Shown: positions 33,282 to 38,660 of the stretch, one piece after another
How the letters are laid out: every line of letters begins with the position of its first letter
Numbering within the stretch: position 1 is the first letter of the stretch
NCBI RefSeq assembly: GCF_009931435.1
Contig: NZ_CP043414.1
Reading direction: 5' to 3' (one strand)
DNA length: 64,000 nucleotides
DNA from: Escherichia coli
GTDB lineage: Bacteria > Pseudomonadota > Gammaproteobacteria > Enterobacterales > Enterobacteriaceae
Notes under the pieces: generated by a model
Databases searched by the model: none
The model's input: only the letters and a program-made list of their open reading frames with translations
What the model was told of the DNA's origin: nothing
Program-made: the position numbers and the translations under genes

Positions 33282-33695
33282 ATGGCTAATAAACCTTCGG
33301 CAGAAGAACTGAAAAAAAATTTGTCCGAGATGCAGTTCTACGTGACGCAGAATCATGGGACAGAGCCGCCATTTACGGGTCGTTTACTGCATAACAAGCG
33401 TGACGGCGTATATCACTGTTTGATCTGCGATGCCCCGCTGTTTCATTCCCAAACCAAGTATGATTCCGGCTGTGGCTGGCCCAGTTTCTACGAACCGGTG
33501 AGTGAAGAATCCATTCGTTATATCAAAGACTTGTCACATGGAATGCAGCGCATAGAAATTCGTTGCGGTAACTGTGATGCCCATCTGGGGCATGTCTTCC
33601 CCGACGGGCCACAGCCAACGGGTGAACGTTATTGTGTTAACTCAGCCTCTTTACGCTTTACCGATGGCGAAAACGGCGAAGAAATCAACGGTTGA
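33282..33695 (+). CDS. msrB: Peptide methionine (R)-S-oxide reductase MsrB
   Basis: ORF 33252..33695; start set at [10 protein letters not shown] (137 aa); two CxxC zinc motifs and catalytic RYCVNSASL. Confidence 0.9.
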
Positions 33696-33736
33696 AAAAA
33701 CGATTCAGCAACTTATTCCACAGGAGCGGAAAATTT

Positions 33737-34009
33737 ATGAATCTTGATGACATTATCAACAGCATGACGCCTGAGGTATACCAGCGTTTGTCGACAGCCG
33801 TTGAACTGGGTAAGTGGCCAGATGGCGTTGCGCTGACCGAGGAACAAAAAGAGAACTGCCTACAGCTGGTGATGCTGTGGCAAGCCCGCCATAATACCGA
33901 AGCACAGCATATGACAATTGACACACATGGTCAGATGGTTATGAAGAGCAAACAACAGTTAAAAGAAGATTTTGGTATCTCAGCAAAGCCTATTGCCATG
34001 TTTAAATGA
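33737..34009 (+). CDS. yeaC: DUF1315 protein YeaC
   Basis: ORF 33692..34009; start set at MNLDDIINSM (90 aa). Confidence 0.8.
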   Translation: MNLDDIINSMTPEVYQRLSTAVELGKWPDGVALTEEQKENCLQLVMLWQARHNTEAQHMTIDTHGQMVMKSKQQLKEDFGISAKPIAMFK

Positions 34010-34177
34010 TTGAATTATTCAGCTTTTTGAGTCTGTTATTAAGTGCGAACAAAAATACTTGTTTGACGTCTTGATTGTTCGATTTAGCGGTTGATAGGTT
34101 AAATGCAACACTGACGAGTATAACCTGGCCTACGATGTCAATGAGGAAATGTAGGCCAGAGATGTATTCAACTAATA

Positions 34178-34819
34178 TTACTCCTGCGTCTCTTCCCAGT
34201 CTGCCAGCGTATATAGCGTTGCCCCAGCTGCTGACATCTCCATAAACGCGTGCGCACTGTCCTGTGGCTGGATATTCACGCCACGACAACCATCGGTAAT
34301 CACATTAACCTTATAACCTAACTGTAACGCGTCCAGCACGGTAAACTTCACGCAATAGTCAGTAGCCAGGCCCATAATGATCAATTCATCGATTTCATGA
34401 TCGCGTAACCAGTCATCGAGCGTGGTTTTCTGCCGACGGCCGTTATCAAAAAAGGCACTGTAACTGTCAACTAAAGGATTTTCGCCTTTATGGAACACCG
34501 CTGCGATCGCTTTTTGGTTCAGTAACGGATGTAATTGTGCGCCTTCACTGTTCTGCACACAGTGATCTGGCCAGAAGGTTTGTGGCAAACCGTCGAGTTG
34601 GCCTGGCGTATAAGGCTCTACACCGTGCTGACTGGCAAAACTGCCGTGATTCGCCGGGTGCCAGTCTTGACTGGCGATAACCGCTTCACCGCGCGACTGG
34701 CACCAGTCAATCAGGCGGTTAGCGACATCCACCGTACTGTCACCTTCCGGCACGGCGAGCGCGCCACCAGCACAGAAATCATTTTGTAAATCGACCAGTA
34801 ACAGGGCGCGAGGGGGCAT
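34178..34819 (-). CDS. pncA: Nicotinamidase / pyrazinamidase
   Basis: ORF 34178..34837; start set at MPPRALLLVDLQNDF (213 aa). Confidence 0.9.
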   Translation of the reverse strand: MPPRALLLVDLQNDFCAGGALAVPEGDSTVDVANRLIDWCQSRGEAVIASQDWHPANHGSFASQHGVEPYTPGQLDGLPQTFWPDHCVQNSEGAQLHPLLNQKAIAAVFHKGENPLVDSYSAFFDNGRRQKTTLDDWLRDHEIDELIIMGLATDYCVKFTVLDALQLGYKVNVITDGCRGVNIQPQDSAHAFMEMSAAGATLYTLADWEETQE

Positions 34820-34829
34820 TGCAGTCTCC

Positions 34830-35846
34830 TTAATCATCCGGCGTCAGTTCGCCGCGCAGGTTTTGGCTCATGGCCTTGCGAATGGTTTCAGTATCCAGTT
34901 CCTGGCTAAGCAGGTAATGCAGTTTGGTTAGCGTGGCTTCTACAGTCATATCTGCACCGCCAATAACGCCGGCATGGGCGAGGGCGTTACCAGTGGCATA
35001 ACCCCCCATGTTCACTTTGCCGGACATACATTGTGTCAGGTTGACTACCACAATTCCGCGATCGCTGGCTTCTTGTAATTCTTGCAGGAAGGCTTTGTTT
35101 TGTGGCGCATTACCCACGCCATATGAGCGCAGAATCAATGCCTTCACCGGTTGGCGCAGAAAATTGCGCACGACGTCAGCAGAAATCCCTGGATAAATCG
35201 TCACTACGCCAATCGGTTGTGGGGTGATTGGATGAACGATCAATTCCCCTTCACCGTGCGGGGCGGGTGGCGTATTCAAACGACGAATATGGATACCTGC
35301 TTCCAGTAACGGAGGAAGGTTTGGAGAGGCAAACGCATCAAAACCATCGGCATGGGCTTTGGTGGTACGGTTGCCACGATAAAGTCGATTATTAAAAAAG
35401 AGAGTTACTTCGTTGATAGGATAATTCGCCGCAACGTACAACGCATTCAGCAGATTAATTTGTCCGTCAGAGCGTAACTCAGCCAGCGGGATTTGTGACC
35501 CTGTCACAATGACCGGTTTACCGAGATTCTCGAGCATGAACGACAGCGCAGAGGCGGTATACGCCATCGTGTCGGTGCCGTGCAGAATGACAAAACCATC
35601 ATAGTCGTCATAATGCGCTTTAATATCTTCAGCAATATGCTGCCAGTCTTCTGGCGTCATATCTGAAGAGTCCATCAGCGGCGTATATTCATGAATGGTG
35701 AAATCTGGCATCTCCGGGCGATGGAATTCCGGCATCAGCGCCAGTTGGCGTTGTAGATGACCTGACACCGGAATATAACCCTGCTCGGAACGCTGCATCC
35801 CGATGGTCCCGCCCGTGTAGGCGACGTAAATTGATTTCTTTTGCAT
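34830..35846 (-). CDS. ansA: Cytoplasmic L-asparaginase I
   Basis: 338-aa ORF MQKKSIYVAYTGGTIGMQRS... Confidence 0.9.
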   Translation of the reverse strand: MQKKSIYVAYTGGTIGMQRSEQGYIPVSGHLQRQLALMPEFHRPEMPDFTIHEYTPLMDSSDMTPEDWQHIAEDIKAHYDDYDGFVILHGTDTMAYTASALSFMLENLGKPVIVTGSQIPLAELRSDGQINLLNALYVAANYPINEVTLFFNNRLYRGNRTTKAHADGFDAFASPNLPPLLEAGIHIRRLNTPPAPHGEGELIVHPITPQPIGVVTIYPGISADVVRNFLRQPVKALILRSYGVGNAPQNKAFLQELQEASDRGIVVVNLTQCMSGKVNMGGYATGNALAHAGVIGGADMTVEATLTKLHYLLSQELDTETIRKAMSQNLRGELTPDD

Positions 35847-35977
35847 GATATTGATATGAATGATATCGAAAGAGCAAAAGTATATACGTGAGGGGCAGCG
35901 AGCGCACCTGGATACTCTGTGGATATGAGAAAAGTCCGGCAGAACGGAGGGATTAGTGTCCCGCCGGAGAAAAGTGG

Positions 35978-36700
35978 TTAATCCTGCAACGCATAGGTTA
36001 CGGTGGTTACTACGCGTACCGTTTTATTAATCGCCGTAGGATCATCTTCATCACTGCCACTGGCGAAGATCTGGAACACGCCTTGTGAGGCATCGCTAAT
36101 TGACCCCACCTGGCTACCTGAGTCCGTTGCAAATTGTAATGCTGCGTTGCGTGCATCTTTGGTGGCGGCGGCAATCATCTCAGCGCGCAGTGCGCCAATA
36201 CCATTAAAGCGATAGGCGACTTTGCTCTCAGCGATAGCGCCCTCCGTAGCGACTTGCAGTTCGTTTAATTTCGCGACGACTTTTTCGACAGCAGCAACAT
36301 TATGGGTTTTTATCGTCACTGACCCGTCTGCGTTATAGCGTGGCATTGTGGGATCATCTTTCAGATAAAAGGAATCTGTTCGCTTGCTTGTCCATTGGCC
36401 CAGGGTTATCTCTTTCTCGTTAATCCCCTGAGCATTGAGTTCGGCAACAATTTTTTTCTGCGCGTCTTCCAGTTTCGGGAACAGTTCGCCGGGAATATTA
36501 CCCTTAAAGTTAATCGCAATTGTTAATTCTGCCGTATCTGCGCGAACTTCTTTTTCAGAAAGCCCACGCACATTTACATAACGGTTATTGGTTTTTAAAT
36601 GTTTAACACCATCGCCAACAAAATAACCACAGGCGCTAATCCCCAGTCCGAGGACGATAGCGGCAATTAAAGAGGGGGCCTTATTCACTGATGACTCCAT
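35978..36700 (-). CDS. SIMPL/DUF541-like (YggE/BP26-like) exported or membrane-anchored protein; not expected between ansA and sppA in K-12
   Basis: ORF 35978..36790; probable start at Met31 (MESSVNKAPSLIAAIVLGLGISACGYF, hydrophobic signal/anchor) or at in-frame GTG 36688, which has GGAG 6 nt upstream. Confidence 0.6.
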   Translation of the reverse strand: MESSVNKAPSLIAAIVLGLGISACGYFVGDGVKHLKTNNRYVNVRGLSEKEVRADTAELTIAINFKGNIPGELFPKLEDAQKKIVAELNAQGINEKEITLGQWTSKRTDSFYLKDDPTMPRYNADGSVTIKTHNVAAVEKVVAKLNELQVATEGAIAESKVAYRFNGIGALRAEMIAAATKDARNAALQFATDSGSQVGSISDASQGVFQIFASGSDEDDPTAINKTVRVVTTVTYALQD

Positions 36701-36803
36701 ATCAGATGCTAAATGAGCAAGGGAATGTAGTGGAGAGAGGGAGTGAAAGACAGTCCGATTCAGGAGTGTGGCCGACAGCATATCGGCCACATTTTTGCAG
36801 GAT

Positions 36804-38660
36804 TTAACGCACGTTGGCGCAGGTCAGGCAAAACGCATAACGGTTTTGTGGGTCGTTAAACGCTGCCAGCTTGTCGCTTTCACTTTTAACGGTAGAGGCT
36901 ACCGAGGCCAGCGGTGCAGGTAACATGGCCTGGAACGCATCTGGCAACATTGCCCGGACAGAACCAGACATATTGTCCATCACTTTGTCGAAGAAGGTCG
37001 GTTCATCAACGTAGTATTCCAGATGCCACTGTTTCACTTTTGCCAGCTCTGCTGCTTTGGCAACCGCATCATCGAAATCTCCGAGACTATCGACCAGCCC
37101 GTTAGCTTTTGCATCCTGACCGGTCCAGACGTGGCCCTGGGCGATTTTATCAATCTGCTCCGGCGTCGAATGACGCGCATCAGCAACCAGCGTGATAAAG
37201 CGTTTATAGCCATTCTCAATGCTTAACTGCATCATCTGCTGCGCTTCCGGCGGCAGTGCCTTGGTGATAGAAACATCCGCCAGCGGTGAAGTTGAGACGC
37301 CATCGGTATGAACACCAATCGAATCCAAACTATTTTCTACGGTAGTGATCACGCCGAAGATACCGATAGAACCGGTCAGGGTGCTGGGGTTAGCCACAAT
37401 GTAATTAGCTGGCGTGGAAATCCAGTAACCACCAGATGCCGCCATGCCGCCCATCGATACAACCACAGGCTTACCCGCTGCCCTGGCGGCTGCCAGTTCA
37501 GCGCGAATCACTTCAGAGGCGGTAACGCTGCCGCCAGGGCTATTAACACGCAGAACAATCGCTTTCACTTTCGGGTCAAGGCGAGCGTCGCGGATTTGTG
37601 CCGCAGTGGTATCACCGCCAACATTCCCCTGAGTTTCCTCGCCATCCATAATTGCGCCATTCGCGAAGACGACACCGATGCTGTCACCGGTATCTGCCGG
37701 CGTTTTCAATGCGTAATCGTAATAACTGATGGCGCGATAATTTTTATCAGTCTTACTCCAGCCGAACTCTTTGGTCAGAGCTTTTTCGATTTCGGCACTT
37801 GATGCCAGTGCATCGACCAGCTTGTTTTCCAGCGCATATTTCGCGGTATCGCCACCTGTTTTGGTTAAACCCTCAAGCAACCCTTGCGCACCAGGGAATA
37901 CCTGCTGAGCAGGGATCTGCCGGTTAGCGGCAACAGTATTCAGATAGTTTTGCCACAGCTCACCGATCCAGCGGCTGTCAGCTTCGCGGGCTGCCGGTGA
38001 CATATCATCACGAATAAACGGTTCAACGGCAGATTTATACGTACCCACGCGGAACACATGGGTGGAGACTTTCAGCTTATCCAGTAACGATTTGTAGTAC
38101 AGACCGTTGGTAGCAAAACCGTGCAGATCCACCACGCCTTGTGGAGATAGCCAAATTTTGTTGGCGAAACTGGCGAGATAATATTGCCCCTGGCTGTAGT
38201 TCTCGCCTATGGCATAAACTGGCTTCCCGCTGTCACGAAACTCTTTCAGGGCTTTGCCGATGTACTGCATAGACGGCTGGTCGCCGCCTGCGAAGTTTTT
38301 CAGATCCATCACGATACCGGTGATATTGCGGTCGTCCTTCGCCTGGCGAATGGTGTTGACGATATCAAACAGTGAGTTTTCCTGCAGACGGTCGGAACTG
38401 GCACCAAGGAGCTGGCGGCTTAGCTTACTAAACCGCTGAGAACTGTCGGGTTTATCGACGATTACACCAGATATGTCCAGCAGCAGCGCGCCACGACTGG
38501 CCGTTTCTTTCGAATCACCACCTCTGACCTGCATCCAGATCCCCACACCAACCAGTACGAGAAAAATAAAGAACAGGTTAAGTACCATTTCACGGACGAA
38601 ATTCAGCAGACGCCACGTCCATTTAAAAAATCCGGCAATAAATCGCCAAAGGGTTCGCAT
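36804..38660 (-). CDS. sppA: Signal peptide peptidase A (protease IV)
   Basis: ORF 36804..38804; start set at [14 protein letters not shown] (618 aa). Confidence 0.9.

Follow-up and report, generated by a model that had tools for sequence, protein, structure and literature searches.

A 64,000-nucleotide stretch of Escherichia coli DNA (contig NZ_CP043414.1, hereafter the window) carries, on its minus strand, the gene for signal peptide peptidase A (sppA) followed by a gene for a SIMPL-domain protein, which lies between sppA and ansA. A compact GC-rich hairpin separates the first two genes. The features of this junction are as follows.

36804–38660, minus strand: sppA coding sequence, signal peptide peptidase A, 618 aa (RefSeq annotation of a 100% identical strain, L001, and the ORF list).
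36792–36796, no strand assigned: TTTTT on the plus strand, AAAAA on the sppA-sense strand, within the 12-nt spacer from the sppA stop to the hairpin.
36767–36791, minus strand: sppA 3′ stem-loop with nine Watson-Crick pairs, TGTGGCCGA/TCGGCCACA.
36689–36766, minus strand: spacer from the hairpin to the SIMPL start codon, C-rich and G-poor on the sense strand.
35978–36688, minus strand: SIMPL-domain gene (RefSeq annotation of the 100% identical strain; Pfam PF04402).
35927–35968, minus strand: terminator-like hairpin of the SIMPL gene itself, UCCGGCGGGAC...GUUCUGCCGGA then CUUUUCU (dG −18.3, z −4.1).

A sequence-only reading of the window had described a stable hairpin followed by ATTTTT at 36768–36796, lying between two minus-strand genes. 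Both statements are borne out, the first by the sequence and its folding, with the run of five T on the plus strand only, and the second by the annotation of the identical strain and the PF04402 assignment. The sppA stop codon occupies 36804–36806 and the hairpin begins 12 nt past it. The two 8-nt arms, GTGGCCGA (36768–36775) and TCGGCCAC (36783–36790), are perfectly complementary and enclose the loop cagcata; T36767 and A36791 form a ninth pair, and ATTTTT follows at 36791–36796. The plus-strand context at 36761–36800 thus reads ...caggagt GTGGCCGA cagcata TCGGCCAC atttttgcagg.... The same reading placed the U-tract ahead of the hairpin on the minus strand. In fact, it is an A-run (AAAAAU) that precedes the hairpin on the minus-strand RNA.

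Folding of a 61-nt plus-strand RNA gave −27.4 kcal/mol (z = −6.2, with none of 200 shuffled sequences equally good), and the minus-strand segment gave −21.0 kcal/mol (z = −3.6). For the hairpin alone the figures are −14.8 kcal/mol on the plus RNA, with 9 bp and a 7-nt loop, and −17.2 kcal/mol on the sppA-sense RNA, where additional U.G and A-U pairs extend the stem to 11 bp and narrow the loop to 3 nt. The plus RNA attains −19.3 kcal/mol once AGGAGU pairs with the U-run. Six of the nine pairs of the plus-strand stem are G-C, and UUUUU follows directly. Neither strand of the site was called by a consensus terminator scanner, presumably because G.T and A.T pairing between AGGAGT and ATTTTT lets the scanner stem absorb the T-run. 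Perfect 8-bp GC-rich stems followed by at least five T in 8 nt occur 9 times in the window, at 6 sites with both strands counted, whereas Markov simulations give 0.28, and this class of features is therefore not due to chance.

The hairpin motif itself is present in a single copy in the window, even with two mismatches allowed (0 expected), and the surrounding 141-bp region matches one place per E. coli genome. These counts bear on the suggestion that the hairpin belongs to a REP/BIME-like or other repeated palindromic family. Such an element would also be a GC-rich extragenic palindrome, but the single-copy status, the absence of an Rfam match and a sequence that we take to be unlike the REP consensus refute this interpretation, to which we give a negligible probability. 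An Rfam scan at E ≤ 10 returned chance snoRNA and thermometer matches only.

We fetched 80 Enterobacteriaceae sppA loci, which together with the window make 81, and scored, for each, the best hairpin in the 75 nt that follow the stop codon. In 69 of these 81 loci a hairpin lies 0–21 nt past the stop, on the sppA strand, with at least four T in the next 8 nt; this stop-proximal hairpin with its T-rich tail is the canonical sppA terminator. All 80 loci other than the window possess a hairpin at the corresponding position. Its sequence depends on the genus: Citrobacter, Enterobacter and Kluyvera share CCCCTCTTC...GAAGAGGGG, and the stem GTGGCC(GA)...(TC)GGCCAC is specific to Escherichia, at the same distance from the stop in every Escherichia allele examined. 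Three types can be distinguished among these Escherichia alleles; the sequences below are those of the sppA strand.

SIMPL gene absent (K-12 and two other E. coli): stem followed by ATTATTTTTT.
SIMPL gene present, U-tract present (contig with the E. fergusonii SIMPL protein): AAATTA-TGTGGCC(16-nt loop)GGCCACA-TTTTTTTGT-CTCCAGAATCAGACTGTTTTTCAC.
SIMPL gene present, U-tract absent (the window, Escherichia sp. MOD1-EC7003, E1V33, E. whittamii and E. albertii): stem followed directly by CTCCTGAAYCGGACTGTCTTTCAC.

The comparison with the K-12 sppA 3′ region, which the sequence-only reading had proposed as a check, resolves the question by revealing an orthologous terminator with a U-tract on the sense strand. 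On the sppA strand, the scanner classes the K-12 site as terminator-like; the site shares with the window the arms GTGGCCGA/TCGGCCAC, the 12-nt distance from the sppA stop, the genus-specific sequence and a similar stability (−17.1 versus −17.2 kcal/mol). The two differ in their loops (AGATC in K-12, UAUGCUG in the window), in the gene that follows sppA (ansA in K-12, the SIMPL gene in the window) and, on the sppA strand, in both flanks of the stem: K-12 has ATTATTTTTT on the 3′ side and ACTGA on the 5′ side, whereas the window has ACTCCTGA and AAAAAT. The sense-strand tail of the window, CUCCUGAA, contains two U in 8 nt, as against six in K-12 and at least four in the 69 canonical loci. The window hairpin is thus a stable stem-loop placed shortly after a stop codon and, judging from the alignments and the scanner result for K-12, orthologous to a canonical terminator, and it lacks the sppA-strand U-tract that marks an intrinsic terminator. 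In the E. fergusonii-type allele the outer stem is the same and leads into TTTTTTT, which is succeeded by a block with homology to the sequence behind the window hairpin; in the alignment, the window type shows a 9-column gap exactly at the E. fergusonii U-tract. The 5′ flank of the stem on the sense strand varies among Escherichia alleles (AAAAAT, AAATAT, AATTAC, AAATTA and, in K-12, ACTGA). This stretch is A/T-rich but variable, and the plus-strand "U-tract" is therefore the spacer between stop codon and hairpin read backwards.

The plus-strand run itself has five T's in E. coli and MOD1-EC7003 (one cryptic clade) only. Elsewhere it is ATATTT in E1V33 and E. whittamii, GTAATT in E. albertii and ATAATT in E. 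fergusonii. Seven core pairs of the stem are invariant in nine Escherichia alleles, and the loop and flanks vary. The ninth pair goes from UA to CG in E. albertii, which is the one compensatory change, and a covariation test over the nine alleles was not significant (170 of 500 shuffles were as good). G36786A (strain 32F4) and GTGGTCGAC (strain E69) are independent C to U changes in the 5′ arm as seen from the sense strand; each keeps a U.G wobble on the sppA RNA, whereas the plus RNA acquires a mismatched C.A. In the window type, the inner U.G pair likewise favours the sense RNA. In this small count, three wobble variants speak for the sense strand and one against (E. fergusonii, G to A in the inner stem), a hint, short of proof, that the stem serves the sppA-sense strand.

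These observations bear directly on the proposal that the hairpin terminates an antisense transcript. A plus-strand intrinsic terminator under selection could end a cis-antisense or divergent small RNA that begins in the 5′ region of the SIMPL gene, or guard sppA against pervasive antisense transcription, and every sequence feature of such a terminator is present in the form of the 9-bp GC-rich stem with UUUUU directly after it. The sequence is also near-invariant in 943 SIMPL-containing E. coli genomes, which are too closely related to be informative. However, no plus-strand gene lies upstream, the nearest, yeaC, ending at 34009; the scanner found no plus-strand promoter-like site from 35614 to the hairpin (about 1.1 kb); and the site has no Rfam match. 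Furthermore, the U-run decays to AUAUUU, GUAAUU and AUAAUU in the other species listed above, the natural stem variants yield C.A mismatches on the plus RNA, and the extra loop-closing pairs form on the sense RNA only. We therefore regard selection for plus-strand termination as unlikely. A 51-codon GTG-initiated ORF on the plus strand (36768–36923) begins inside the hairpin and runs antisense to the 3′ end of sppA; we found no evidence that this ORF is a gene.

The distribution of the SIMPL gene is relevant to a second proposal, namely that the hairpin is a relic brought in or created by the insertion or rearrangement that introduced this gene. Of 5426 complete E. coli genomes, 943 have the gene between sppA and ansA, O157:H7, O55:H7, O145 and ST131 among them; K-12 lacks it. 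It occupies the same site in E. albertii, E. whittamii, two cryptic-clade genomes and E. fergusonii, that is, in all Escherichia species sampled, and was also found on a metagenomic contig whose sppA is closest to that of the Citrobacter freundii complex. This distribution indicates that the SIMPL gene is old at the site and was lost by K-12. It likewise makes the hairpin older than the difference between K-12 and the window, whose hairpin type is also found in E. albertii, E. whittamii and the cryptic clades. The spacer between sppA and ansA in K-12 aligns with the terminator region of the SIMPL gene (...AATCC..CCG.T.T..GCC...TTTC..TATCC.CA.AGTATC.AGGTGCGC); since this intergenic region holds a decayed copy of that terminator region, K-12 is a deletion derivative. 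In favour of an origin of the hairpin with the SIMPL gene, the SIMPL-containing form is carried by 943 E. coli genomes, presence of the gene and absence of the sense U-tract coincide in the E. coli alleles examined, and the three SIMPL-less alleles that were read (K-12, L004 and L006) all have the U-tract. However, the stem and its distance from the sppA stop are unchanged in SIMPL-less E. coli, E. fergusonii combines the SIMPL gene with a U-tract, the gene is found at the site throughout the genus and on the Citrobacter-like contig, and K-12 retains the decayed terminator region of a deletion derivative. An origin of the hairpin in the SIMPL rearrangement is thus very improbable. What survives of the proposal is the notion of a relic, in the form of an sppA terminator without its U-tract; its attribution to the arrival of the SIMPL gene does not stand, because the same stem exists in SIMPL-less K-12 and the gene is old at the site.

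Parsimony over these few taxa suggests that the ancestral junction had a U-tract and that the lineage of the window lost it. This polarity follows from the canonical terminators of the outgroups, from E. fergusonii, which has both U-tract and SIMPL gene, and from the Citrobacter-like contig, in which the hairpin is followed by TTTCTGCC. With only 70% identity in the SIMPL protein, the E. fergusonii locus may not be a simple orthologue.

Two scenarios for the difference between K-12 and the window were set aside. The first places the K-12 deletion junction at a CCAC microhomology, where it would have created the U-tract from sequence behind the SIMPL stop codon. This junction is unsupported, with 6 of 19 positions matching outside anchors that were chosen after the fact; a junction further downstream, at AATC(C), appears to fit the aligned sequences better. 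The second is an inversion of the terminator. Around the loop, the antisense strand of the window does match the K-12 sense strand slightly better (GTGGCCGACAG...TCGGCCACAT), but the flanks are collinear (TAA-nTCyTGyA in both), and the simple 9-nt indel seen with E. fergusonii also runs counter to an inversion.

Other features of the region vary as well. In three Citrobacter genomes (C. portucalensis, C. werkmanii and C. youngae; L011, L012 and L018, 4104–6320) sppA and ansA are separated by a different insertion, about 2.2 kb long, so this junction seems to be a recurrent insertion site; in two of the three, the T-tail of the sppA hairpin is weak, with three T in 8 nt. Distant SIMPL homologues (L084 and L085, 54% identity) lie beside dapA/dapB, with no sppA nearby, and so carry no information on the hairpin. 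Elsewhere in the window, a plus-strand yeaC-like ORF adjoins the minus-strand pncA (33692–34837). K-12 carries between these two genes a 9-kb ydjL-ydjK-ydjJ-ydjI-ydjH-ydjG-ydjF-ydjE block that is absent from the window, and an E. fergusonii-type contig (L083) has the same compact gene order as the window. Over the junction and its surroundings (parts of ansA and sppA with the sequence between them), identity of the window to K-12 is only about 94%. The region as a whole has the look of an old alternative haplotype.

An IS200 element (IS200/IS605 tnpA) was found in 9 of the 943 SIMPL-containing E. coli genomes, at the junction corresponding to 36796/36797 of the window. It is inserted exactly between plus-strand CACATTTTT and GCAGG, without target duplication and with tnpA on the window plus strand, as exemplified by E. 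coli AST85 (L090:3109-3815). The right end of the element forms a hairpin (CCTCCGGCATAGCCGGAGG followed by TTTTTC) 14 nt past the sppA stop, on the sppA strand, and the insertion therefore supplies a canonical sense terminator.

The spacer that separates the hairpin from the SIMPL gene has no U-tract at the place where E. fergusonii carries TTTTTTTGT. Its composition was scored over a 79-nt segment on the sense strand (A16 C26 G10 T27), and it includes a conserved block, CTCCWGAAYCRGACTRTYTTTYA, and the motif ACTACATT. The block (36743–36766, minus strand) lies directly 3′ of the hairpin and is kept in all six SIMPL-containing Escherichia alleles, among them the otherwise divergent E. fergusonii allele, in which it comes after the U-tract. 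Another conserved motif, ACTA[C/G]A[T/G]T, occupies about 36722–36729, some 35 nt before the SIMPL start codon. Block and motif may serve the SIMPL gene as a regulator site and a −10 element, the motif being the candidate −10 element. No sigma-70-like promoter for the SIMPL gene passed the scanner in this spacer, and a visual search for sigmaE-like and extended −10 motifs turned up nothing convincing. The SIMPL gene begins with GTG, preceded by GGAG, and its own terminator-like hairpin, upstream of the ansA promoter region, is kept in L005, L008 and L009. The SIMPL protein evolves fast relative to its neighbours, with 86% identity in E. albertii and 70% in E. fergusonii, as against 97% for the C-terminal 200 aa of SppA and 98–99% for AnsA in other Escherichia species. 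Its N-terminus (VNKAPSLIAAIVLGLGISAC...) resembles a lipoprotein signal with a lipobox.

Taken together, the alignments and the survey of sppA loci make it very probable that the hairpin is the stem-loop that ends the sppA transcription unit, orthologous to the sppA intrinsic terminator of K-12 and E. fergusonii. The ancestral element would have consisted of an A/T-rich spacer, a GC-rich stem and a U-tract, and was probably symmetric in appearance. In the window haplotype the sppA-strand U-tract is missing (the 9-nt gap relative to E. fergusonii) and the upstream A-run is retained, so that on the opposite strand the A-run and the palindromic stem mimic a plus-strand terminator. Intrinsic termination by E. 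coli RNA polymerase requires a U-tract, and the sense-strand hairpin, being deprived of it, should terminate poorly. RNA polymerase transcribing sppA would form the hairpin without the U-tract needed for release, and would then either read through into the SIMPL gene or be halted by Rho within the untranslated spacer, which is rich in C and poor in G. Either way, the hairpin would shield the 3′ end of the sppA mRNA from 3′-to-5′ exonucleases. Considering the poor sense terminator, the C26/G10 composition of the spacer and the stem-loop precedent of Dar & Sorek discussed below, the most likely present role is that of a 3′-end-protecting stem-loop and leaky stop for the sppA mRNA, with some read-through into the SIMPL gene. 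Such read-through would be unneeded for expression in E. fergusonii, where a strong terminator stands ahead of the SIMPL gene, which must then have its own promoter there. Any polymerase arriving on the plus strand would probably be terminated, and we see no indication of selection for this; the ending of stray plus-strand transcripts would be a by-product. The Term-seq and transcriptome supplements covered for mapped sppA 3′ ends (K-12 Term-seq; O157 Sakai Term-seq and RIBO-seq) contain no sppA entry.

A more far-reaching possibility, which we hold to be rather doubtful, is that loss of nine bases, the U-tract, switched the polarity of the terminator. The hairpin would then be permissive on the sppA strand, joining the SIMPL envelope gene to sppA in a single transcription unit, and the leftover A-run would make it a one-way block to antisense transcripts running into sppA. 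In that case the K-12 type, with its terminator intact and the SIMPL gene deleted, and the window type, with the U-tract lost and the SIMPL gene retained, would represent alternative solutions at the same junction. Under the preferred reading, that of a U-tract-less sppA terminator, the object is ordinary: a gene-end stem-loop with a simple evolutionary explanation for its odd orientation, which matters little for biology at large. It does carry a caution for annotation, as a terminator stem that keeps only its upstream A-run will be scored by predictors as a terminator on the wrong strand. The junction also offers a natural allelic series (U-tract with SIMPL, U-tract without SIMPL, SIMPL without U-tract, and IS200 insertion) that could be used to measure the in vivo contributions of the U-tract and the A-tract. 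Finally, the SIMPL gene and the ydjL-ydjE block are markers of an old presence/absence polymorphism that distinguishes a B2/E-type from a K-12-type haplotype of the region.

In E. coli, Rho-dependent transcripts end at stable stem-loops that lack a U-rich tail, are followed by sequence richer in C than in G, and guard the RNA against PNPase and RNase II (Dar & Sorek 2018, PMC6061677). The window hairpin resembles these protective stem-loops in its position just after a gene, in the absence of a U-rich tail and in the C26/G10 composition downstream. It differs from them by the AAAAA directly upstream on the sense strand, as the Rho-dependent 3′ hairpins are reported to have no upstream A-tracts (Dar & Sorek 2018, PMC6061677). 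Bidirectional intrinsic terminators, in which an A-tract, a hairpin and a U-tract lie between convergent genes, share with the window a palindromic GC-rich stem and an adjoining homopolymer run, and the E. fergusonii allele (AAATTA-stem-TTTTTTT) approaches their symmetric form. In the window, by contrast, the genes are co-directional, and there is one tract only, which serves the strand without a gene. REP elements are likewise extragenic GC-rich palindromes at gene 3′ ends, whereas the window hairpin is single-copy, of another sequence and without BIME organisation.
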